Source: Acidobacteriota bacterium (GTDB lineage Bacteria; Acidobacteriota; UBA6911; RPQK01; JAJDTT01). Taken from it: a DNA stretch of 64,000 bases. The stretch is from positions 1,024,001-1,088,000 of the forward strand of contig CBDCJH010000002.1 of the NCBI GenBank assembly GCA_965217775.1, in the 5' to 3' direction. The position numbers were made by a program, and so were the translations under genes. The notes beneath the pieces are model-generated. The model had not been told where the DNA came from. It was given only the letters and a program-made list of their open reading frames with translations, and made no database searches. This document shows positions 8,033 through 38,933 of the stretch, piece after piece; positions within the stretch are counted from its first letter, which is position 1, and each line of letters begins with the position of its first letter.

Positions 8033-9631
8033 GTGCGCTTCTTCAACACCACGGGTCCCGTCGTCGCAACGGACCACTACTGCATACCACCGTTGGAGCG
8101 CTTGAATCTCGACGAGGTCCGGACGCTGATCGGGCAGAAACGATATTTCGTGCTGCACGCGCCGCGGCAGACCGGCAAGACGTCCACCCTGCTGGCGTTG
8201 CGCGACCTGCTCAACGGCGGTGCCGAGGGTGAGTACCGTTGCGTCTACACCAACGTCGAAGCCGGTCAGACCTCGCGCGAAGACCTGGGACAGGCGATGC
8301 GCGCGATTCTGGTGCGATTGGCCTCGCGGGCTCGTTCGACGCTCGGCGACGAGTTCCTGGACCAGATCTGGCCCGGTGTCCTGGAACGAGCCGGTCCGCA
8401 CGGCGCGCTCGAAGAAGCTCTGACTCTCTGGAGCGAAGCCGACCCCAGGCCGCTCGTGCTGCTCATCGACGAGATCGACGCGCTGGTGGGCGATACGTTG
8501 CTCTCGGTGCTGCGCCAGTTGCGCGCCGGCTACGACCAGCGTCCGGCCGGCTTTCCACAGAGCGTGGTGCTGTGCGGCGTGCGCGACGTGCGCGACTGCC
8601 GCATCCACTCCAGCTCCGAGAAGGCGATCATCGCTGGCGGCAGTGCCTTCAACATCAACGCCAAGTCGCTGCGCCTCGGCGACTTATCGGAGGAAGATGT
8701 GCGCGACCTGCTGGCCCAGCACACCGAAGAGACCGGAGAGGCGTTCACCTCTGACGCAGTGGAGACGATCTGGAGACAGACCCGGGGCCAACCCTGGCTG
8801 GTGAACGCCCTCGCTTACGAAGCCTGCTTCGAGAGCGGGGACGGGCGCGACAACGGCCGTCCGGTGACCGCAGACGCCATCATCGAAGCCCAGGAGCAGT
8901 TGATTCTCCGGCGGGAGACGCATCTGGACCAGTTGGCCGACAAGCTGCGGGAGGACCGGGTGCGTCGCGTGGTCGAACCGATCCTGGGCGGGGTTGAAGC
9001 GGCCGACTCCGTCCCCGCCGACGACCTGCAGTACGTCCGCGACCTGGGCCTCGTGTGCAGCGAGGGACCCGCCGTCATCGCCAACCCGATCTACCGGGAG
9101 GTTGTTCCCCGTGATCTCACCTACACGACCCAGGAGATGACGTTCGGTGGCTACAATCCGGCCTGGTACGTCGGTGCGGACGGTGACCTGCGGGTTGACG
9201 ATCTATTGGCCGCTTTCCAGGCTTTCTTTCGCGAGCACTCGGAACACTGGGTGGAGCGGTTCCAGTACAAGGAGGCGGGTCCGCAGTTACTGCTGCAGGC
9301 GTTCTTGCAGCGGATCGTCAACCGCGGAGGCAGAATCGAGCGCGAGTATGGCCTGGGAAGGATGCGCACGGATCTCTTGATCGTCTGGCCGGTGAAGGGG
9401 GACCTCCAAGACACCCGCAAGACGGTGGTCGAGTGCAAGCTGCTGCACGGAAGCCTTGAACGCACCGTCCAGCGGGGGCTTGAACAGACCTGGGCCTACA
9501 TGACTCGTTGCGCCGCCGTCGAGGGTCACCTGGTGATCTTCGACCGCAGCGAGGGGACGGGGTGGGAGGACCGGATTTTCCGTCGCCAGGAGGCCGTCGA
9601 GAGCGGAACTGTGACGGTGTGGGGGATGTAG
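8033..9631 (+). CDS. AAA-family ATPase with C-terminal PD-(D/E)XK-like domain
   Basis: Family-typical start (M)RFFNTTGP, Walker A HAPRQTGKT, Walker B LLIDEID, C-terminal RTDLLIVW..VVECK. The true gene is the 3' part of ORF 6920..9631. Confidence 0.85.
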   Translation: MRFFNTTGPVVATDHYCIPPLERLNLDEVRTLIGQKRYFVLHAPRQTGKTSTLLALRDLLNGGAEGEYRCVYTNVEAGQTSREDLGQAMRAILVRLASRARSTLGDEFLDQIWPGVLERAGPHGALEEALTLWSEADPRPLVLLIDEIDALVGDTLLSVLRQLRAGYDQRPAGFPQSVVLCGVRDVRDCRIHSSSEKAIIAGGSAFNINAKSLRLGDLSEEDVRDLLAQHTEETGEAFTSDAVETIWRQTRGQPWLVNALAYEACFESGDGRDNGRPVTADAIIEAQEQLILRRETHLDQLADKLREDRVRRVVEPILGGVEAADSVPADDLQYVRDLGLVCSEGPAVIANPIYREVVPRDLTYTTQEMTFGGYNPAWYVGADGDLRVDDLLAAFQAFFREHSEHWVERFQYKEAGPQLLLQAFLQRIVNRGGRIEREYGLGRMRTDLLIVWPVKGDLQDTRKTVVECKLLHGSLERTVQRGLEQTWAYMTRCAAVEGHLVIFDRSEGTGWEDRIFRRQEAVESGTVTVWGM

Positions 9632-16382: not shown

Positions 16383-16540
16383 CAGCCCGTGGCAAAAGTC
16401 GTCACGGCATTCGACCGTCCCTGCATCCCGGCGGACGGCGTTGCGACTCGGTCACATACTCCGGGTATGCTCCCTCATCGCGCCTTGTCCGGCGGGCGCA
16501 GGACCGGTCTCGGTGCGCGCGAGACTTTCACCACGGACTG
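16383..16540 (+). mobile_element. 158-bp palindromic MITE-like element, copy 1 (intergenic)
   Basis: Imperfect terminal inverted repeats CAGCCCGTGGCAAAAGTC / GACTTTCACCACGGACTG. Flanks GTAT and ATAT. Same length as the copies at 33607 and 38776. Confidence 0.88.
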
Positions 16541-24354: not shown

Positions 24355-25125
24355 ATGTCCCTGGAATCGGCGGTGGCCGTCGTCACGGGAGCGGCGGAGG
24401 GCATGGGCCGGGCCATTGCCTGGAAGCTCGGTAGCGAGGGCGCCCGGGTCGCCGTCTGTGACCGCAACCGGGAGGGTCTCGAAGCCGCTGCCGGACAAAT
24501 GGCGGCGAGCGGGTTCCGGGTCCTGGCCCGGGTCTGCGACGTCAGCGACAACCGGCAGGTGGAAGGGTTCGTCTCCGCAGTCACCGGGGAATGGGGCGGG
24601 ATCCGGATCCTGGTGAACAACGCCGGGATCTCGAAACGGAATCCGATTCTGGAGCCGGGCGACGAGACCTGGCATGAGGTGCTGGCCACCAATCTGACCG
24701 GCGTCTATTACTGCACCCACCGGGCGCTTCCCCATTTCCAGGACGGCGGCCGCATCGTCCACATCTCCTCCATCTCGGGGAAGGTGGGCTCGGCCGAGTA
24801 CAGTGCCTATTGCGCTTCCAAGCATGGGGTAATCGGTCTGACCCGGGCCCTGGCCCTGGAGTTGGCTCCCCGCGGGATCACGGTCAACGCCGTCTGTCCC
24901 GGGTGGGTGCGGACATCCATGGCCCGCAGGGACCTCCAGGAGACCGCCCGCCTCGAGGGCCTGAGCCTTGAAGCCATGCGTCGACGCATTTTGGACGGGA
25001 TCCCCCTGGAAACCATGATCCGTCCCGAGGAGGTGGCCGGTCTGGTGCACTTCCTGGTGTCACCCTCGGGAGCGGCCATCACGGGACAGGCCGTAGACAT
25101 CTCGGCGGGGGAGGTGATGTCTTGA
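24355..25125 (+). CDS. Short-chain dehydrogenase/reductase
   Basis: VTGAAEGMG, NNAG, YCASKHG, VNAVCPG. Confidence 0.9.
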   Translation: MSLESAVAVVTGAAEGMGRAIAWKLGSEGARVAVCDRNREGLEAAAGQMAASGFRVLARVCDVSDNRQVEGFVSAVTGEWGGIRILVNNAGISKRNPILEPGDETWHEVLATNLTGVYYCTHRALPHFQDGGRIVHISSISGKVGSAEYSAYCASKHGVIGLTRALALELAPRGITVNAVCPGWVRTSMARRDLQETARLEGLSLEAMRRRILDGIPLETMIRPEEVAGLVHFLVSPSGAAITGQAVDISAGEVMS

Positions 25126-25130
25126 GACGA

Positions 25131-25198
25131 GGAGGGGGGACATCCCTGTCCCCCTCTTCAACACCGCCCCGGAACCGGGGGTTGCAAACCCCCGCTCC
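25131..25198. repeat. REP doublet, copy B
   Basis: GGAGGGGGGACATCCCTGTCCCCCTC...CGGGGGTTGCAAACCCCCGCTCC; paralogous to 6082-6148. Confidence 0.75.
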
Positions 25199-25257
25199 AA
25201 CACGCCCTTTTTCTGCGTGGATTGCGCCGGCCCGCGGCCGGCGGAGGACTTCCAAAA

Positions 25258-28200
25258 ATGATTGGAATCGGTCTTGTCATTTCTTTCCTGTTCTTCACCG
25301 GGTGGGCACGGGCGTCCGCCCCAGAGTCGAAACCCCGGTCCCTGGGAGACCTGACCGGTCCTTGGGAACTGGTCGTGGACGATCACCTGATCCAGGAGAA
25401 GCAGGGACTGGTCCGCCGTTATCATCCGTTTCGCAAACATGCGGGGAACCCGGTCCTGAAGCCCGACCGTCCCTGGGAAGGACAGGTGGCCTATCTGCTG
25501 GGGACGGTGCTCCCGATCCCCGATGGCCAGGGATACCGGATCTGGTACCACACCGCCAATCCGGATGCCGACCCGAAGGAACAATACCGAAACCTCTACG
25601 CCGAGAGCCGGGACGGCGTCCATTGGACCAAGCCGGACCTGGGCATCGTCCGGTATCGGGGCTCGGGAGCCAACAACATCTTCCTGGACCGGATGCGGGA
25701 GAGCCACATTCCTCTGGTGATCCACACCCCCTGGGACCCGGATCCGGAGAAGGAATACAAGCTGGTCTACTACGACTACGGCCGCACCGATCCCCGTCAC
25801 CGGGTCAGCGGTTACTACGGGGCATGGTCCAGAGACGGCATCCATTGGAGCCCGATTCGGGAGGAACCCCTGTTTGCGGACCCCGGAGACGTGGGCAACT
25901 TCGTCTGGGATCCGCACCAGGGCCGCTTTCTGGGCTACGCGAAGATCTTCGTGCCCTATGGCGGACACCGTCGGCGGGCCATCGGTCTGACCGCCACCAC
26001 CGACTTCCTCCACTGGCCACCGACCCAACTGGTTCTGGCCCCCGACGCGGTGGACGACCGCTGGGTGACCGCCGACCGGCAACACACCGACTTCTACGGC
26101 CTCTCCGCCTTTGCCTACGAATCCATGTACCTGGGTTTTCTCTGGGTGTTCCGGATCGACGACGGGCACAACGACGGGACCATCCACGTGGAGTTGGTGA
26201 GCAGCCGGGACGGCATCGATTGGAAGCGGGAAGAGGGAAACCGTCCACCCCTGGTGGAGCTGGGAGCCGCAGGGCAATGGGACGACGGCATGTTGCACAC
26301 CCCGAGTCAGCCGTTGGTCGAGGGGGACACAATCAGGCTCTTCTACGGGGCCTCGGACCAGACCCACGTGAGCCCGGTGGCGGGGGGATGGGGGAACTGC
26401 GCCATCGGCTTGGCCACCCTGCGCAAGGACGGGTTCGCGTCCCTGGATGCGGGCGAGGAGGCGGGCTCCTTCACCACTCGCCGGCTGCGCCATTTTGCCG
26501 GACCTCTCCGGGTGAATGCCGACGCCCGCCGCGGTTGGGTGCGAGTCGAGTTGCTGGACTCGTCCGGAAACGTCATTCCCGGTTTCGGGAAGGATCAATG
26601 CGATCCGGTGAAGGACGACGGCGTCGACCAGGTCGTCCGCTGGCAGGGACGGGACCGGTGGCCGGAGTCCGCGCGGCCCGCGCATCTCCGGTTCCACCTC
26701 CAGAACGCCTCACTGTACTCCTTCCGGGGGGCCGGGCCCATGGAGCCGGCGGACCAATCGCCCCTTCTGGACGTCCTGCTCGATTTCGAGGGGGACGTGG
26801 ACAGCTCAGTCCGGGACAAGCGGACCGAAGACGGACGACAGGACGTGCGGCTGCACAACTCGGTCCGAATCGTCCAGGATCGAGAAGCCGCCGCCTCCGG
26901 CAGCGGCGCGGCAAAGTTCTTCGGGGAGGGGAAGACCCACGACGCCCTTGAGATTCCCGGAACCCGGTATCTGGGCACCCGATTTACCCTCTCGGCCCGC
27001 GTGAAGCCGGCCCTGAAACGGCGCATGCGCCTGTTCAGCAACCATCGAGGGACGGGCCAGCCGGCCACGGGAGAGCTCATCTTCGACTTCAATCCCAACG
27101 GCGGCGACCTTCGGTTAGTCTGCAACGGTCAGACCGTGCGATCCCGGTCGGTCTCCATCTTCACCGATCGCTTCCACCTCATGGAGGCCACCTACGATGA
27201 GGGGCGGGTCCGCCTCTACCTGGACGGCGTCCAGGTCGGTGAGGGACAGCTCATGGCGGGGACTTCCCACCTCTACTACGACCGTTCGATCGTGCTCCAC
27301 TTGACCCCTCCCGGCAGGGCTCCGACCGTGGGGCTCTACCTGGCATCGGATCTTCGGGTGGGACAGGATCTGGAGGGGCGCTTCATCACCCATCGCCACG
27401 AGGCCCGGAGCGATCCCGGGAATCAACTCGTCGGCCTGGTGGACGAGGTTCGGATCATCCGGCGAACCTCCGGAGCGGTCGGACCGCCAAATACCGAAAC
27501 GAGCTTCATCCGGGAAGTCGGGCCGATCCGGCGCTACGGACCGGGCGGAGGCTGGGGAGAGGGGGGATGGGCCCGATCCCTCCAGGCGCCGGACGGCACC
27601 ATCTATCTTTACGGGGACAAGAAGACTCTGGACGGGGGCAAAACCTACGTGGCTCACGAGGGGCCGTCCCTGCAGGAGGTCCTCCGCATTCCGGAGCGTG
27701 TCTTCCATGTCCGCAAGGGGCACTTCTTCGCCCTGGGCGGGGCCGCCGACTTCCAGTCGCCCGGGATCTATACCGTCCGATCCTGGCGTTCGCGGGACGA
27801 CTTGGCGACCCTCCGGGAGGAGCAATCGGTGATTCGGGTTCCGGGCGGTCCGCCGAGGGCCCGGGAAAAGGGCGAGTGGTACGGGCTCTACTTCTACCGG
27901 GACATGCTGGAGATGCCCGACGGGACCCTTATGACCACCATGGAGGGAAACCTGGAACAGGACGACCTGGCGCCCACCGACCGCCGCAGCTCGTCGGAGA
28001 CCCACTATCAGCAGCGGACCTTCACCTTGATTTCCAAGGACGAGGGGCGGTCGTGGGACTACTTTTCCACCGTTGCCGCACCCAAGCCGGGAGACCCGGT
28101 AGGCGAGGGTTTCACCGAGCCGTCTCTACTCCATATGGGCGAAGGCCGTCTGCTCTGCGTCATGCGGACCGGCCACTTCACGCCTTTGTTCGCCAGTTGG

Positions 28201-29619: not shown

Positions 29620-31071
29620 TTACGGTTTCGCTCCGATCTGTTTCAGGTATTCGCGTCCTGTTGCTGTCAGGCGGTAGCGCTGCTTGCTGCTGCGCGGCTT
29701 GTCCGGGATCGTCATTTCGATCAGACTGGCCTGCAAGGCAGGGACCAGATACGCCTTGCGGAAATGTTGACTGTCCCTGAGATCAAGCCTTTCCTGCAGG
29801 CGTTGTCGGGTCATTTCACCAGACAACGCCTTCAACAGTCGAACTTGAGGGGTGACTTGAGGGGTGACTTGAGGGGTGACTTGAGGGGTGACTCCCCCGG
29901 CGACTCTGTCATCCTCAGACGCCGCATGGACCTCCGGGTTCGGACGAAAGGTGACGGTCACGAAGCTGTCGGCCTCGAACTCCGGTTCCGGGCAGTCCAA
30001 CTCCCTCGCCTCGTCCCGGATGCGCCGGATGCCAGTGCCGGCCTTCTCGATGAAGTCGATGCGATGGAGCAGGTCCGCGACCAGTGCGTTCCGCCGGATG
30101 CTCCTGCGCCCAAGTTCGGCCAGGGTCAAGCCCTTGGGGAGGCTGCCGGGGCTGCTCACCTCGATTCGGTCGGTGTAGATCTCCACGAAGACGTTGGCCC
30201 CGTCGAAGAACCAGTCGCGGTGCATGACCGCATTGGTGATCGCCTCGCGTAGCGCCCTCATCGGATACTCCGGGATGTTCTGTCGCCGCAGCCCCTCGAT
30301 CCGATAGGCGGTGCGGGTATTGCGCTCGACGAAACGCAGGGCGTCCTCGATGTCGGCCACGACCCCGCCGTCGAAGTCCTTTCGGTCCAGGATGTGGACC
30401 TTGTCCGTGCCTCTTGCCAGCAGGCAGGTGATGTACGCCTCCGGGAAGAAATGACGTACGTTCCGAGCAAAGAAGAGCACACCGGCGTTTCGGAAGAGCA
30501 GTTTCCCACCCGCCTGCTCGGCTGCCTCGATGTTGACCAGCACGTCTTCGACCGGCAATTGGCCGGTGATGCCGGAGTAGCCGAGCCAAACCTCGAACTT
30601 CTCGCGGTGGAAATCCTCCGGATAACGGAAGCGGGGACAGGGGGAGAGATCGAACCGGATCACGCCTTCGACCCGGAAGAAGTCGCGGATTTCGTCACGG
30701 CTGAGCTTCTGGGTCACTGCGCCCTGACGCCAGAAGATTCCATCGCTGCATTGCACGGGCTTGGCGTCGCTTTCGCGAACCTGAACCACGAGTATCTCAC
30801 CCACCGGCTCCGCCAGCACCTTCACCGGAGGATCGCAATTTCGGGCGATGTCCTGAATGCGGGCGCGCAGAGCGTTGGAGTCCCGGATCCCGATTACGAT
30901 GCCATCATCGCGCACTCCCAGAAGGATCTTCCCTCCAATCGTGTTCGCCAGGGCCACGACTTCCCTCGCCAACGACGACGAGGGACTTTCCTTGAATTCA
31001 AGGGTCGTTCCCTCACCCTGCTGGATGAGGATTGCGAGGTCCGCAGGTGTGATTCTAGCCACGTGAGTCAA
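29620..31071 (-). CDS. Schlafen AlbA_2 + HATPase_c_4 + C-terminal HTH protein
   Basis: EGTTLEFKES..ALANTIGG, YPMRALREAITNAVMHRD, RNALVADLL, EKAGTGI, C-terminal IEMTIPDKPRSSKQRYRLT. Confidence 0.88.
   Translation of the reverse strand: MTHVARITPADLAILIQQGEGTTLEFKESPSSSLAREVVALANTIGGKILLGVRDDGIVIGIRDSNALRARIQDIARNCDPPVKVLAEPVGEILVVQVRESDAKPVQCSDGIFWRQGAVTQKLSRDEIRDFFRVEGVIRFDLSPCPRFRYPEDFHREKFEVWLGYSGITGQLPVEDVLVNIEAAEQAGGKLLFRNAGVLFFARNVRHFFPEAYITCLLARGTDKVHILDRKDFDGGVVADIEDALRFVERNTRTAYRIEGLRRQNIPEYPMRALREAITNAVMHRDWFFDGANVFVEIYTDRIEVSSPGSLPKGLTLAELGRRSIRRNALVADLLHRIDFIEKAGTGIRRIRDEARELDCPEPEFEADSFVTVTFRPNPEVHAASEDDRVAGGVTPQVTPQVTPQVTPQVRLLKALSGEMTRQRLQERLDLRDSQHFRKAYLVPALQASLIEMTIPDKPRSSKQRYRLTATGREYLKQIGAKP
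29845..29892 (-). repeat. 12-bp tandem repeat x4 encoding VTPQ
   Basis: TTGAGGGGTGAC repeated four times on the + strand, in frame within the AlbA_2 gene. Confidence 0.95.
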
Positions 31072-31348: not shown

Positions 31349-31537
31349 GGTAATGCGGTTTCATATTCGACTCGTCCCGATTCACTACGTCGTCGGGGTC
31401 ATCCCATAACGTCGGCTATCGGGAGGGTGCAAATAACAGGCGAGCCAATGCCGACCTCGAAGTTCGCACGCTCAGGGGTTTAGTGAAAGGCGAGTCTACC
31501 TTACAATTTGCAGATCGAATTCAATGGAGTTGGAGCC

Positions 31538-31774
31538 ATGGCCATCACGCTCACAGTGACTCTCAAGGGGCAGATCACCTTGCGCAAAGAGGTACTCAAT
31601 CATCTCGGGGCGCGTCCCGGCGACAAACTCGAGGTCGACCTGCTGAAGGCCGGACGGATTCAACTGAGGCCGAAGCGTGGAACCTCGCCGGCAAGCGTCT
31701 TCGGTATGCTTGCAAGACCGGGAACACCACGTCTTTCCATCGAAGAACTCAACCAGGCCGCTGCTTCCGGATAG
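31538..31774 (+). CDS. AbrB/MazE-type antitoxin (VapB-like)
   Basis: LTVTLKGQITLRKEVLNHLGARPGDKLEV. The TAG stop looks like a mutated TGG: readthrough gives W-A-D-E-E-stop with a GTGA overlap on the toxin start. Confidence 0.85.
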   Translation: MAITLTVTLKGQITLRKEVLNHLGARPGDKLEVDLLKAGRIQLRPKRGTSPASVFGMLARPGTPRLSIEELNQAAASG

Positions 31775-31785
31775 GCGGACGAGGA

Positions 31786-32205
31786 GTGAGGATTAAAGCC
31801 GATCCGAATGTGCTGCTGGGTGCCATCCTACAGGATGACCAGGAACAGGCCTCAGCGGCACGGGCGGTGCTCCTGCGCGCGACGGTCATTACCGTTCCCG
31901 TGCCGGTCTTCTGCGAGTTTGTTTGGGTGTTGAAGCACGGCTACGGTCGGAAGGTCGATGAGATAGCCGTAGCGATCGAGGCCATATGTGAAATCGACGC
32001 CGTGGTCACTGATATACCGGCGGTCGAGGCAGGTTTGACCCTGCTGCGCGCAGGCGGACACTTCGCCGACGGAGTCATCGCCCATCAAGGCGAAGGATTC
32101 GGCGGAAGCGTGTTCGCCAGTTTCGATCGCAACGCCATCGCTCTCTTGAAGAGGAACGGGTCGGCGGCAGCCGAAGTCTCTGAGTTGATCGGCACCGGGC
32201 GGTAA
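31786..32205 (+). CDS. vapC: PIN-domain VapC-family toxin
   Basis: ADPNVLL (variant of DTNVL), CEFVWVL, HFADGVIA, ASFDR; directly downstream of the AbrB-type gene. Confidence 0.8.
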   Translation: MRIKADPNVLLGAILQDDQEQASAARAVLLRATVITVPVPVFCEFVWVLKHGYGRKVDEIAVAIEAICEIDAVVTDIPAVEAGLTLLRAGGHFADGVIAHQGEGFGGSVFASFDRNAIALLKRNGSAAAEVSELIGTGR

Positions 32206-32285
32206 AATCCTTTACGAGAAGATCCTGCTCCAAGTGGATGAGACTCTGACGCCGAAGGCGTTACGGGTTCCGCTGGTTATGGCAT

Positions 32286-32417
32286 CTAAAATGTTCTGTT
32301 CATGAGCTGTCGCCGGAGTTCCATGAACTCAGACTCAAGGCACCCAAATACCTTATCGACATAATCGTCCAAATTTGCGCGGACTTCGTCGAAGTTGACT
32401 TCAAAAGGAAACGACAT
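32286..32417 (-). pseudogene. Short ORF overlapping the methyltransferase 3' end; probable truncated partner gene (possibly the endonuclease)
   Basis: MSFPFEVNFDEVRANLDDYVDKVFGCLESEFM... stops after 43 aa; its start overlaps the MTase end by 17 nt. Confidence 0.4.
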
Positions 32418-34755
32418 CACGTGTCTCTTCGTCGGACTGTTTCTTTCGTAACAACGGTCCCGGCGATATTGGTACAGGATCGGCAGCGGCCACTAGTTCC
32501 AAGATGTGGACAGGATCTCCAAGGCTGGATACTGTGTCGCCAAATGCCGCGATCTTGTTAGCTATCGGCTGACCCTTGTCCCAAAGCGGGCGGAGCTTCC
32601 AGACGGCCATACGTGTCAGATGGCCGAAGACGATACAACGGGTGTCGCCTCGGGTCGGCTTTCTGCCCGCCTGCTCCAAGTCCGCCAAATCCACCGCCAC
32701 GATTGCTGCAAGCTGTTCGGGCGTGTCGAATATCCAGCGGCGCGGCACTGCACCCGACGCCCGGCAGACGAACACGGTATCGATGATCGATGAACCCGTG
32801 CCGTGGATGTGGATGGAGCCCCCCATCTCGGCGGGACAGGGCAGTGTGGCAGAAACGACCAGGTCGGCGTCCAGGATGGCCACTCCGACGGCGTGATACG
32901 TCTCCAGCTTGTTGTGGTGGTAGGTGAACGCGAGCGGTGCGCCGGGCTTCAAGGCTTGGGCCATTCGCGAATAGGCGGCGGAGAGTCCTTCTGTGAAATG
33001 ATCCAATCCATGATTCCGGGTTACATTGCCATTAAGTTCGTCCTGAGATCGTGTGAGCGCGCGCTCAAAGCCATCCGCCTCGTTTCCCACCAAGCGTCGA
33101 AGCCAGACATAACAGAAGTCCATTAGCTCGCTATACTGCACGTTGCCGTAATACGGAGGGTCTGTGAACACGGCGTCGAGGCTCTCCGGCGAGACATCGA
33201 TAGAGGTGGCGCTGGCACAACGGATGGCCACTTTGCGCCGTTGCCCGCCCCGCTTCTCGCCGATCCATTCCCCTTTGATGGGAACCCGGACATTACGGGT
33301 CCCTCTGCGCCTGACTTCGAACGGCGCGCTGCAATACAGTTTCGCCTTGGCATATTTGTGGACAATGTTGGACCACCCGCCGGAGCCCACGTTGCGGCCG
33401 GCTCCGTTGTTTATGCGCAGGAGATTGGATTCGCACTGTACCAACCCCACCGGAAAGCCGTGCACGGAGAAGATGTCCAAAGATTTGAGCGCCGTAATGT
33501 CGTAGCGGCAGAGCATGTTCTGGTAGCGCAACAGGTCGGAGAGATTGGTGGCGATGGCATGCCGTATTCGCTGGTCCTTGACCTGGGAAATCAGCCGGCA
33601 ACTTAACAGTCCGTGGTGAAAGTCCCGCGAGCACCGAGACCGTTCCTGCGCCCGCCGGACAAGGCGCGATTCGGGTGCATACCGGGAGTATGTGCCCGAA
33701 TCGCAACGCCGTCCGCCGGGATGCAGGGACAGTCGAATGCCGTGATGACTTTTGCCACGGGCTGTTAACTCCAACCCTAGAAGTTGGCGTGGATTGAAGA
33801 GGTCTTTAAAGCGGGTGTACCCGCAGCGATGCAGACGATCGGTCTCGTCGCCGGCGAGGATCTCCTGGTTCGGAACGAAGCTGGGAGTGAGCTGTTCCCA
33901 TCGCTGTGAGGCAGCCTCCATGCGCAATGCATCTTCTTTGTCCGGTTTCTTGAAGAAACGGCCCTTGTGTTTCGCCTTTCGCGTGGGGTTGAAATATTCC
34001 ATCGCGAACATGCGGTGCCGCAGAGGACGTTGCGCCTCTCCCGGGTAGGCGTTGGAATGCCCGCAATGGGGGCATTCGCAGCGTCCTCTGCGCGCGGGGC
34101 CGGCTTGGCGAAGTTCGGTCCCACAGCTCGAGCAACCTCCCGAATCCCTGTAGTCCTCGACTTGGTTCAGATCACCGCAGGTCGGGCACACCAGGACATT
34201 CATCGGGTGACGCCGGTTCCTGGCGACCAGGTAGCCCGGAAAGAGGTCGAATGCTTGCCCGCAACGCACGCAATCGAGCACCTTGACCCAGAGGAAGGAC
34301 TTCACGGGTACGTTGGAATCCCCGTAGAGTGGGCAGGAGGTTCGGTAATATCGATCGATTTCCGTACGCAGAGCCGCAAGTAGCCTCTGAACTGCCTGCC
34401 GGTAAGCCGACAGGTCGACGGATTCAAGCTCTTCGCGGACAATCCACGCAGACATCGGATTGATGTCGAAACCCTGCACTTCGCATCCAACTCGATTGGC
34501 CTCAATGAGCGGGGTTCCACCGCCCATGAACGGGTCTGCGATCCGGATCCCCGAAAAGTCGTTTCTCCGGAAAAAAGTCTTTTCAAGACGGTCACGACCG
34601 AACTCGGCCAAAATCAGGCCACGAAACAGGGTGCCGGGACGGCGGGCGAACCACTTATGGACACCGATGATGGGACGGTAGTTCTGCTGTATCTGTTTTT
34701 CCTTGAATGCCATTCGGGCGACCAAGGAAACATCGAATCTGTGCTCGATACTCAT
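32401..34755 (-). CDS. Amino-DNA methyltransferase with Zn ribbons (DUF1156-like), carrying an in-frame MITE insertion
   Basis: HKWFARRP, motif I DPFMGGGTP, several CxxC pairs, motif IV TDPPYY, FTYHH. A 54-aa insert lies between LLGLEL and SCRLIS. Confidence 0.88.
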   Translation of the reverse strand: MSIEHRFDVSLVARMAFKEKQIQQNYRPIIGVHKWFARRPGTLFRGLILAEFGRDRLEKTFFRRNDFSGIRIADPFMGGGTPLIEANRVGCEVQGFDINPMSAWIVREELESVDLSAYRQAVQRLLAALRTEIDRYYRTSCPLYGDSNVPVKSFLWVKVLDCVRCGQAFDLFPGYLVARNRRHPMNVLVCPTCGDLNQVEDYRDSGGCSSCGTELRQAGPARRGRCECPHCGHSNAYPGEAQRPLRHRMFAMEYFNPTRKAKHKGRFFKKPDKEDALRMEAASQRWEQLTPSFVPNQEILAGDETDRLHRCGYTRFKDLFNPRQLLGLELTARGKSHHGIRLSLHPGGRRCDSGTYSRYAPESRLVRRAQERSRCSRDFHHGLLSCRLISQVKDQRIRHAIATNLSDLLRYQNMLCRYDITALKSLDIFSVHGFPVGLVQCESNLLRINNGAGRNVGSGGWSNIVHKYAKAKLYCSAPFEVRRRGTRNVRVPIKGEWIGEKRGGQRRKVAIRCASATSIDVSPESLDAVFTDPPYYGNVQYSELMDFCYVWLRRLVGNEADGFERALTRSQDELNGNVTRNHGLDHFTEGLSAAYSRMAQALKPGAPLAFTYHHNKLETYHAVGVAILDADLVVSATLPCPAEMGGSIHIHGTGSSIIDTVFVCRASGAVPRRWIFDTPEQLAAIVAVDLADLEQAGRKPTRGDTRCIVFGHLTRMAVWKLRPLWDKGQPIANKIAAFGDTVSSLGDPVHILELVAAADPVPISPGPLLRKKQSDEETRDVVSF
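33607..33764 (-). mobile_element. 158-bp MITE-like element, copy 2, with TTAA target duplication, in frame in the MTase
   Basis: TTAA at 33603-33606 and 33765-33768; ends CAGTCCGTGGTGAAAGTC and GACTTTTGCCACGGGCTG on the + strand. Confidence 0.93.
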
Positions 34756-35134
34756 CGCCTGTCCTGACTGATCTCTACTTTAGAGAGAGCGGCTCCGGGT
34801 CCCTGCCGCTTTGGGCCTCTTCGTACGGAACACCGTCGCGAGTTTGGCCTCCAGACAATCTCCGAATTCTACGCTGGAACCATGACAGAACCTCAGATGT
34901 CCGGACTCCCATCCCCCTCCCACGAAACGCCGCCAAAAATGCGGCGTCGTCTGGCCAATAGTCGAGCATGTTCGTTGTACCGGGAGGAGCCTAGGAAAAA
35001 GAGCGACGAGAGGAATGCACCCGTGCCGCTTCAGGGCGGCGGAGGGAACGAACCCCGAGCCAGACCGCCGACGTTGATCGGAATGTGTGTCGATGCGATC
35101 ATTTGCCGAGTATGGCAAGGAGAACAGCGAGACC

Positions 35135-38775: not shown

Positions 38776-38933
38776 CAGCCCGTGGCAAAAGTCGTCACGG
38801 CATTCGACCGTCCCTGCATCCCGGCGGACTGCGTTGCTATCGGCTCACATACTCCCGGTATGCTCCTTCATCGCGCCTTGTCCGGCGGGCGCAGGAACGG
38901 TCTCGGTGCTCGCGAGACTCTTGCCACGGACTG
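38776..38933 (+). mobile_element. 158-bp MITE-like element, copy 3
   Basis: CAGCCCGTGGCAAAAGTC...GACTCTTGCCACGGACTG; same length as the other copies; flanks TAAA/TCAT show no clear duplication. Confidence 0.88.

Follow-up and report, generated by a model that had tools for sequence, protein, structure and literature searches.

Rickettsia palindromic elements (RPEs; Ogata et al., 2000, 2002, as cited in a review) are palindromic sequences of ~150 bp that lie in frame in unrelated protein genes and encode a stop-free peptide, nearly half of the elements being located in ORFs. In Coxiella burnetii, the available text of PMC5896051 places QMITE1 and QMITE2 sometimes at mid-ORF positions in frame with the coding sequence, and describes copies of QMITE2, which has a target duplication of 7–11 nt, as insertion hot-spots for the IS110-family element IS1111. 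The accessible portion of a 2024 review describes in-frame fusions with MITEs as 'not unusual'. The in-frame landing of a MITE in a gene is an already known kind of event. In this study, we analyzed a 64,000-nucleotide stretch of DNA from an Acidobacteriota bacterium (the window), in which the original prediction placed a frame-preserving MITE, comparable to an RPE, inside a DNA methyltransferase gene. The analysis indicates that a young MITE sits in a probably orphaned and decaying methylase, whose protein is most likely inactive or dispensable. The gene and the element were located as follows.

32401-34755, minus strand: DNA methyltransferase ORF of 784 aa (730 aa without the insert), from the ORF list, homologues, and profile matches
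34516-34536, minus strand: DPFMGGG, residues 74-80, which we take to be motif I (AdoMet binding); D74, P75, F76, G78, G79, and G80 invariant
33823-33825, minus strand: codon 311, TGC (Cys), TGG (Trp) in relatives; W in 103/103 homologues and 4/4 near-identical alleles
33765-33768, no strand: right target-site duplication TTAA, from the sequence and the empty-site joint
33607-33764, no strand: MITE core of 158 bp, from the inverted repeats and the genome copies
about 33607-33624 and 33747-33764, no strand: terminal inverted repeats of the MITE core (18-22 nt)
33666-33704, no strand: inner palindrome of the MITE core
33603-33606, no strand: left target-site duplication TTAA, from the sequence; consensus of the family flanks NTAN
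33415-33417, minus strand: codon 447, CGC (Arg), Gly in relatives; G in 103/103 homologues and in the alleles
33151-33162, minus strand: DPPY, residues 532-535, presumably motif IV (catalytic); D532, P533, P534, and Y535 invariant in 103/103

The presumed motifs I and IV lie in one frame on either side of the insert, as had been predicted, and a zinc-ribbon region with four CxxC pairs (residues 162–232) is located between them. The motif I stretch aligned over 47 residues with the FxGxG region of the solved methyltransferase 8urk_A, and a sequence search of the PDB with the methylase yielded nothing beyond this match. Partial profile matches were obtained to HmaB, DUF1156_MTase, PglX, and MTase_II, with E values down to 1.4e-26, and the Pfam matches were all below their cut-offs. 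The insert falls within residues 246–368 of the 730-aa form, a region common to the wider DUF1156 methylase models. No promoter-like or terminator-like sites were found in 33300–35100, and the methylase was not found in any of the eight same-genus genomes in which it was sought.

The TTAA at 33603–33606 is repeated at 33765–33768 and encloses the 158-bp core, and the inverted arms at 33603–33624 and 33747–33768, each 22 nt including the TTAA, are 86% complementary. The inserted unit is 158 + 4 = 162 bp, equal to 54 codons. The predicted composition, a 158-bp element plus a duplicated TTAA, was borne out by the sequence, the inverted arms, and the empty-site joint, and the inverted ends together with the 4-bp target duplication confirmed the reading as a mobile element. 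The methyltransferase translation crosses the insert without a stop as ...RQLLGLEL TARGKSHHGIRLSLHPGGRRCDSGTYSRYAPESRLVRRAQERSRCSRDFHHGLL SCRLISQV..., and the 784-aa translation agrees with the join expected between ...RQLLGLEL and SCRLISQV.... When folded as RNA, the MITE forms one long hairpin of -99.1 kcal/mol (z -10.4).

A blastn search revealed 214 full-length, non-overlapping copies in the same genome, a number that puts the element far above chance, and both ends were located in 213 of them. Identical 4-bp flanks were present in 154 of the 213 copies and comprised 24 different sequences with the consensus NTAN (T at position 2 in 140/154 and A at position 3 in 133/154), TTAA being the commonest (27 copies). 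The length was 158 bp in 149 copies, and the 18-nt ends matched the genome 320 and 322 times, giving 149 pairs spaced at 158 bp. Copies with at least 98% identity numbered 54, and the older subfamilies are 159–160 bp long with fewer open frames; the family is a clean burst of very recent date. All of the same-genus genomes (8/8) contained the MITE, compared with 0/32 other genomes searched. A search of Rfam gave two chance-level matches only (E 0.47 and 0.61), and a search of a plasmid collection gave no match. The identification as a MITE was upheld by the 213 genome copies with inverted ends and NTAN duplications: the window element is a true MITE of a high-copy family, which is restricted to this genus among the genomes searched. 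Since the 54-aa peptide is a repeat, it recurs in many ORFs of the genus.

Two elements of 1475 bp share the ends of the MITE, have a CTAG-type flank, and carry an ORF with PF05598 (DUF772, E 1.5e-17). Their IS5-like C-terminal segment sits in another frame, both copies seem to be frameshifted, and no DDE Pfam match was obtained within them. From these features, the 1475-bp IS5/IS1182-like element seems to be a candidate donor with a transposase apparently split by a frameshift. The MITE may accordingly be described as a putative non-autonomous derivative of an IS5/IS1182-like DDE element, which would have been moved in trans with duplication of a 4-bp NTAN target. Elements of 1.67–1.75 kb flanked by MITE halves were also considered as the parent IS and were rejected, as they encode an IS110-family DEDD transposase and are nested insertions within MITE copies, four in number and all at one position.

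The columns of the insert were empty in all 103 aligned homologues, 83 of which are exactly 730 aa long. The clean 54-aa gap that had been expected was seen in 12/12 homologues and then in 103/103, and the alternative of a native domain was looked for among the same 103, none of which carries the segment. The 90% cluster contains four full-length alleles of 730 aa with 99% identity, and the 784-aa form is recorded from one contig only. At the DNA level, the contigs of 4/4 public runs (X1, X5, X6, and X8) join 33602 to 33765 and omit precisely 162 bases, 5 letters being ambiguous; they show the presence of the empty site and are silent on the absence of a filled allele. The shorter side of the joint measures 25 letters in X1, 35 in X8, and 78 in X5 and X6, making X5, X6, and X8 the firmer cases. 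X8 is an RNA run, and the other three are DNA runs; the depth of X8 over the MITE is the sum of all copies and is uninformative for the methyltransferase gene, and gene parts without X8 cover are no evidence of silence. Genome contigs (best identity, 68%) and metagenome contigs (best, 73%) were also scanned for the nucleotide sequence of an empty allele in a close relative. These scans gave distant relatives only, so the empty site at the DNA level rests on the public-run contigs and the protein alleles.

The skipped bases in the contig of the RNA run X8 would also be explained if the segment were removed after transcription or translation, in an intron- or intein-like manner, to leave a mature enzyme of 730 aa. 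However, the skipped form was also found in the three DNA runs and in the four genomic alleles and hence exists as DNA. The segment has transposon ends and target duplications, no intein or intron features were seen, and no Rfam family matched it (best E 0.47). This explanation is barely conceivable. Another possibility is that a repeat copy was misplaced in the gene during assembly, as could be suspected from the single contig with the 784-aa form, the empty joint in all four public runs, and an estimated genome contamination of 7.47%. Against this, the perfect TTAA duplication with a single TTAA in the empty form is the outcome of transposition and is atypical of a mis-join, both flanks carry on the same gene in frame, and the host contig is 6.29 Mb long. 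The window copy also has rare letters, such as A at 33731 in place of the G found in nearly all MITE contigs, and the public runs represent related strains, which differ from the window at 15 of 1158 positions, and not this genome. Misassembly is therefore very improbable. The favored explanation is that a young MITE copy would have transposed into a TTAA inside the DNA methyltransferase gene.

The reading frames of the element were examined. The MITE is open in phases +0, -0, and -2, has stops in the TTAA only in +1 and -1, and contains three stops in +2; for the 162-bp (3n) unit, 5/6 phases are stop-free. With 5/6 phases open, an intragenic landing usually adds 54 residues instead of truncating the protein. 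Nine of the 12 intragenic copies read through, and at least eight other genes of the genome also contain read-through copies. In two of the genes, domains were identified on both sides of the insert in one frame, namely AlbA_2 and HATPase_c_4 in one and He_PIG and Laminin_G_3 in the other. Read-through is the default of the family, a chance outcome of the 5/6 open phases, and the open frame in the methyltransferase is a property of the element and not a sign of protein preservation.

Dinucleotide shuffles gave P(5 or more) = 0.022 for the number of open frames, and the all-copy consensus has four; an excess of open frames is suggestive at most. It is doubtful that the youngest MITE subfamily, which is also the most prolific, has been shaped to be translatable, with intragenic copies that are hypomorphic rather than null and a methyltransferase that is perhaps active with a loop of 54 residues separating its two halves. 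If this were true, the family would constitute an RPE-like protein-invading element with a recognizable transposon origin and a donor IS.

Copies deep in coding sequence accounted for 12/213 (5.6%) in a relaxed 80-codon codon-usage census, which is limited to insertions lying 80 codons or more away from both ends of a gene and gives a statistical call rather than an annotation, compared with 806/2309 (34.9%) of target-matched random sites (binomial p = 2.7e-24). The MITE copies are thus depleted from genes ~6-fold, indicating a strong selective filter on the family. The relaxed version replaced a first codon-usage threshold that had missed the methylase itself. A census by ORF length and GC3 was discarded as too noisy in this genome of 62% G+C, with 64 candidates, many of them spurious. 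A purging signal was not significant, with 5/54 young (at least 98% identical) copies in genes compared with 7/159 older ones (Fisher p = 0.19). Two of the nine read-through copies were tested for an insert shared with orthologues, and the sister-species orthologues and one paralogue were without the 54 residues. The likeness to an RPE-type protein invader that had been proposed was retained in part: in-frame copies do occur in other genes with a similar outcome, but the family is depleted from genes and its read-through is due to chance. An unusual preference of the element for protein genes was not supported, and both tested in-frame insertions were absent from the sister-species orthologues.

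The insert splits the most conserved block of the methylase, FNPRQLLGLE/LSCRLI, in which F320, R323, Q324, L325, L328, and E329 are invariant and L384–I389 are at least 90% conserved. The W311C and G447R substitutions are private to the window allele: with 33823 G>C, codon 311 is TGG in X1, X5, and X6, and with 33417 G>C, codon 447 is GGC in X1, X5, X6, and X8. The window allele has five private amino-acid changes, and each of the four sister alleles has 0–2. Compared with X1, the window showed 11 synonymous and 7 non-synonymous changes, a ratio that is not neutral by itself and speaks against decay of the gene.

The gene that normally accompanies the methylase was also affected. In 45/48 related loci, a single partner gene of 345 aa is kept downstream of the methylase and overlaps it. 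The corresponding region of the window contains the following features.

32286-32420, minus strand: remnant of the downstream partner gene (putative nuclease); the first ~35 codons match, followed by divergence and a stop
31508-32205, plus strand: AbrB-like ORF and then PIN-domain ORF (toxin-antitoxin-like pair); PF01850 PIN, E 4.6e-6

The tblastn matches to the partner end at 32304–32322, and the X5 and X6 contigs continue beyond 32321 with 592 letters unlike the window. No family match to the partner was found in Pfam, NCBIfam, PADLOC, or PDB (best PDB E 0.74). By eye, the alignment of the partner contains the motif PDF..P...IEAK (PD...ExK-like), which points to a putative nuclease role, and the methylase and its partner would form a two-gene restriction-modification-like operon. 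The pair is not intact in the window, where the partner is cut to ~35 codons and the methylase is interrupted and altered at invariant sites. The AbrB-like ORF, read as such by eye from the sequence, and the PIN ORF occupy the place expected for the rest of the partner gene.

It might be argued that the insert is tolerated, so that the 784-aa enzyme would retain its fold and its methylating activity, the 54 residues being looped out in the manner proposed for RPEs; as the insertion point separates the AdoMet-binding half from the catalytic half, the properties of the enzyme could then be altered. The frame that remains open over all 784 codons, the read-through copies in at least eight other genes, two of them with Pfam domains on both sides, and the predicted fold compatibility of RPE inserts, as reported in the accessible part of a review, are compatible with this possibility. 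However, the junction splits an invariant block, two positions that do not vary in 103/103 homologues are changed in the same allele (W311C and G447R), and the partner gene is lost. Moreover, read-through is the chance outcome of 5/6 phases, intragenic copies are ~6-fold depleted, and the two tested insertions were not common to the orthologues. A tolerated insert is therefore unlikely. The position of the insert in a conserved block, W311C, G447R, and the loss of the partner suggest instead that the protein is most likely inactive or dispensable, and the 54 extra residues most likely mark a dying gene. The caution that selection may be relaxed was well supported by the truncated partner and the two private substitutions at invariant residues. 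In this lineage, the partner gene is reduced to ~35 codons, and the orphaned methylase is probably drifting. We infer a loss of methylase activity and an order of events in which the partner was lost before the MITE landed.

For annotation, these results suggest that the 784-aa 'methyltransferase' is a probable pseudogene in the making and not a novel domain architecture. The case may represent a decaying restriction-modification pair, whose putative nuclease gene would have been lost before its methylase began to drift. With its candidate donor, nested IS110 elements, and empty-site strains, the MITE family could serve to study selection on a 3n, stop-poor MITE.

The methylase resembles DUF1156-type adenine methylases (HmaB, PglX, and NF042963) in having DPPY and in partial matches over the catalytic half and residues 246–368. 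Unlike them, its family has 730 aa rather than about 950 and one 345-aa partner rather than helicase/ATPase genes, and its score with NF042963 (anti-phage-associated DUF1156) was 96.9 bits against a cut-off of 1000. The MITE shares with bacterial IS5/IS1182-type MITEs its inverted repeats, 4-bp duplication with a central TA, small size, lack of a transposase, hundreds of copies, mostly intergenic location, and a longer element that has equal ends and encodes the N-terminal domain of an IS5-type transposase. It differs from them in having no Rfam or plasmid match, in being confined to this genus within the set of genomes searched, and in a donor transposase that is seemingly frameshifted. Like QMITE2, as far as the available text describes it, the family receives insertions of IS110-family elements, here in four copies, whereas it differs from QMITE1 and QMITE2 as given there in sequence, size, duplication length, host, and copy number (213 compared with about 50). 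The likeness to RPEs consists of the size, the palindrome, and the in-frame, stop-free peptide in unrelated genes. In contrast to RPEs, nearly half of which lie in ORFs according to the review, only 12/213 copies of the window family do so, and the tested insertions are not shared with sister species; the window MITE, unlike RPEs, shows clear ends of a transposon as well as target duplications and can be linked to a candidate donor IS.

The DNA methyltransferase (methylase) ORF was found to contain a 158-bp repeat (hereafter the element or MITE) at 33607-33764. The features of the insertion are as follows:

33603-33606 and 33765-33768: TTAA target duplication on both sides of the 158-bp core
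33603-33624 and 33747-33768: inverted arms of 22 nt, 86% complementary
33666-33682 and 33688-33704: inner palindrome of the element
32401..34755, minus strand: single methylase ORF of 784 aa

Together with the duplication, the added unit is 158 + 4 = 162 bp, and the translated ORF carries 54 extra residues between ...RQLLGLEL and SCRLISQV.... The original prediction of an insertion consisting of TTAA plus 158 bp, adding 162 bp and 54 aa without a stop, was borne out in every detail by the sequence and the ORF.

A search of a protein collection yielded 4532 proteins at E ≤ 0.001 among 8000 candidates scored, and first 12 and then 103 methylase homologues, drawn from the best 120 of the 4532, were aligned. 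The clean 54-aa gap expected from the original prediction was observed: none of the 103 had residues in the 54 insert columns, and 83 of them were exactly 730 aa long (784 - 54). At 90% identity, the window's methylase falls in a cluster of six members (one of 784 aa, four of 730 aa, and a 136-aa fragment); the four 730-aa proteins were 99% identical to the window's methylase, and the 784-aa form was known from one contig, the window's own. Comparison of 32200-34900 with contigs from four public sequencing runs (X1, X5, X6, and X8) revealed the joint 33602->33765, skipping exactly 162 bases, in all four, with five letters at the joint being ambiguous and fitting either side. The shorter side of the joint comprised 78 letters in X5 and X6, 35 in X8, and 25 in X1. 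Three of the runs, from three studies, have an unrecorded library type and were taken as DNA, and the fourth is a sponge metatranscriptome. X1 differed from the window at 15 of 1158 letters, and the runs represent related strains distinct from the window's genome. The empty site exists as DNA; the run contigs say nothing on the absence of the filled allele. An assembly artefact as the source of the insert is unlikely, because the target duplication is perfect, the gene continues in frame across the insert, and the MITE copy in the methylase has rare letters of its own.

The genome that contains the window (6.43 Mb, two contigs, C1 and C2, 62% G+C) was searched by blastn with the 166-bp stretch. 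Among 267 matches, 215 were at least 150 bp long and 214 were non-overlapping, and both ends were placed for 213. The core lengths were 158, 159, and 160 bp in 149, 34, and 20 copies, respectively. Identical 4-bp flanks were present in 154 of the 213 copies, with 24 different sequences; position 2 was T in 140 of these copies and position 3 was A in 133. The element makes a true 4-bp target duplication with the consensus NTAN. The copy in the methylase differed from its nearest relatives at one letter of 166, and 54 copies in the genome were at least 98% identical to it, which points to a recent burst of the family. Two older copies in the window, at 16383-16540 and 38776-38933, were 92% and 90% identical to the methylase copy, respectively, and their 4-bp flanks were no longer identical. 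When 41 genomes were searched, the element was present in the window's genome and in all eight other genomes of the same genus, and in none of six from the sister genus of the same family or 26 from the order's other families. As RNA in the methylase sense, it was predicted to fold into one long hairpin (-99.1 kcal/mol, z -10.4), and none of 200 shuffles was as stable. Rfam and plasmid records contained no match to it.

An end-sequence scan identified two 1475-bp elements bearing the MITE's 18-nt ends (C2:310455-311929 and C2:316892-318366), which were identical to each other and had CTAG-type flanks. Their ORF contained an IS5/IS1182-type N-terminal domain (PF05598, E 1.5e-17), and a C-terminal segment that appeared IS5-like or DDE-like by eye lay in another frame, implying that the transposase is frameshifted or needs frameshifting; either programmed frameshifting or loss of activity could account for the split. 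This IS5/IS1182-like element is the best candidate for the MITE's donor family. Ten TIR-like match pairs exactly 434 bp apart were also seen on C2 (e.g., 24931-25364 and 2083959-2084392); their ends resemble the MITE end loosely (within four mismatches), and they may represent an unrelated repeat that lies within a gene family. IS110-family elements, 1674 or 1746 bp long, were found at four sites (C2:1656568-1658241, 3134809-3136482, 5760147-5761892, and 6039542-6041287). Each encodes a 317-aa ORF with PF01548 and PF02371 and is nested in a MITE copy, always at one position (about MITE base 71-76) and in one orientation, and every composite has a 4-bp flank of its own. The IS may target the MITE sequence, in the way that IS1111 targets QMITE2, or the composite may have been mobilised whole.

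The methylase frame is open because the element is 3n long and without stops. In this copy, phases +0, -0, and -2 were stop-free, phases +1 and -1 had stops confined to the TAA of the TTAA duplication, which cannot be stops where the site was coding in that phase, and phase +2 had three stops. Thus, five of six landings in a gene add 54 residues with no truncation. Among the 149 copies with a 158-bp core, 72 had five open frames; the all-copy consensus had four, and 2.2% of 5000 dinucleotide shuffles of the consensus had five or more. This surplus of open frames is no more than suggestive.

Intragenic copies were defined, using a codon-usage score trained on 1234 long ORFs of the window's genome, as those with 80 codons on each side coding in one frame after in silico removal of the element. 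Twelve of the 213 copies were intragenic. About 54% of 3000 random positions passed the same test, as did 806 of 2309 random sites (34.9%) sharing the duplications' 4-mer (binomial p 2.7e-24), and the family is about six-fold depleted from coding sequence. Read-through occurred in nine of the 12, near the 5/6 chance expectation. Pfam domains lay in one frame on either side of the insert in an AlbA_2 / HATPase_c_4 protein (domains 113-217 and 441-525, insert 311-364) and a He_PIG / Laminin_G_3 protein; probable further examples are a TPR protein and a copper amine oxidase. In the two firm cases (AlbA_2 and He_PIG), a sister-species orthologue or a 94% identical C1 paralogue lacked exactly 54 residues, and these insertions are young and lineage-specific. 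No insertion retained across species was found in the two read-through cases checked. A paralogous AlbA_2 protein (C2:6054789-6056807) bears two in-frame MITE copies. The LamG/He_PIG gene copy without the insert is located at C1:20868-22532 on the 144-kb contig C1; its 94% identity, together with a contamination estimate of 7.47%, suggests that C1 may be from a second strain.

Two motifs are invariant in the 730-aa methylase family, DPFxGGG close to the N-terminus and DPPY (532-535 in the 784-aa numbering), and the family also has four CxxC pairs. Pfam matches were all under their cut-offs, PADLOC DNA adenine methylase models matched partially (HmaB, 1.4e-26; DUF1156_MTase, 5.3e-23; PglX; MTase_II), and the NCBIfam anti-phage DUF1156 model scored 96.9 bits where 1000 is the cut-off. 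These matches indicate a DUF1156-related DNA methyltransferase outside the HmaB, DUF1156_MTase, PglX, MTase_II, and NCBIfam DUF1156 families proper. The family occurs in many phyla at 53-68% identity and was not found in the eight other same-genus genomes, where the query matched via its MITE-encoded part only; this distribution marks it as an accessory gene that moves horizontally. In 45 of 48 related loci (those of at least 14 kb), the methylase is followed by a same-strand gene of about 345 aa overlapping its stop (the partner), which lies at about 8183-9205 in each of the related loci L045-L124. The partner is highly conserved across phyla, had no match in Pfam, NCBIfam, PADLOC, or PDB, and contains a PDF..P...IEAK pattern resembling, by eye, the PD-(D/E)xK nuclease motif. 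It may represent an uncharacterised nuclease family, and the pair can be read as a restriction-modification-like operon with a presumed nuclease role. Near the methylase are a Schlafen AlbA_2 / HATPase_c_4 / Fic-like_C protein (29620-31071, minus strand) and an AbrB-like and PIN-domain pair (31508-32205, plus strand); the region resembles a small island of defence or addiction genes.

In the window, the partner is reduced to its first ~35 codons (32316-32420). All 22 tblastn matches of 27 partner proteins ended at 32304-32322, where the alignment diverges, with a stop at codon 44. Contigs of X5 and X6 continued beyond 32321 with 592 letters unlike the window, which fits an intact partner in these strains. 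Five methylase residues (C311, R447, N449, K494, and A666) were private to the window allele relative to four 99%-identical alleles, each of which had zero to two private changes. W311 and G447 are invariant in all 103 homologues, and the corresponding codons in X1, X5, and X6 are TGG and GGC, respectively. That two of the five replacements fall at never-varying residues fits relaxed constraint; the 18 differences between X1 and the window methylase (11 synonymous and seven non-synonymous) are by ratio alone no proof of neutrality. The relaxed selection suggested earlier for this gene is thus supported by the truncated partner and by W311C and G447R. The genome also contains another copy of the pair in a more advanced state of decay (C2:2121532-2122551), in which methylase residues 1-204 (73% identity) run straight into partner residues ~18-177.

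The insert lies between E329 and L384, in a block where F320, R323, Q324, L325, L328, and E329 are invariant and L384-I389 are at least 90% conserved among 103 homologues, and which falls within a stretch common to wider DUF1156 models. Despite the open frame, we consider it improbable that the enzyme tolerates the 54 residues. Most likely, the partner gene would have been deleted in the window's lineage, leaving an orphan methylase under relaxed selection that would have gathered damaging substitutions and, very recently, received a MITE copy; this order of events is our inference.

According to a 2024 review (PMC10969869), it is "not unusual" for MITEs within genes to be fused in frame with genomic ORFs, and Rickettsia palindromic elements (RPEs) carry this to an unusually high frequency. 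The idea of a protein-invading element holds here in that read-through copies occur in other genes, but not in its extent: with 12 of 213 copies intragenic and about six-fold depletion, this MITE differs from RPEs, nearly half of which lie in ORFs according to the review. Reports on other systems describe QMITE2 copies in frame mid-ORF in Coxiella, where QMITE2 is a hot-spot for IS1111 (PMC5896051), and the IS110-family ISPpu9 inserted into REP sequences (PMC12288879). Given these cases, the in-frame insertion in the methylase is an event of a type already on record, and our finding adds to that kind.
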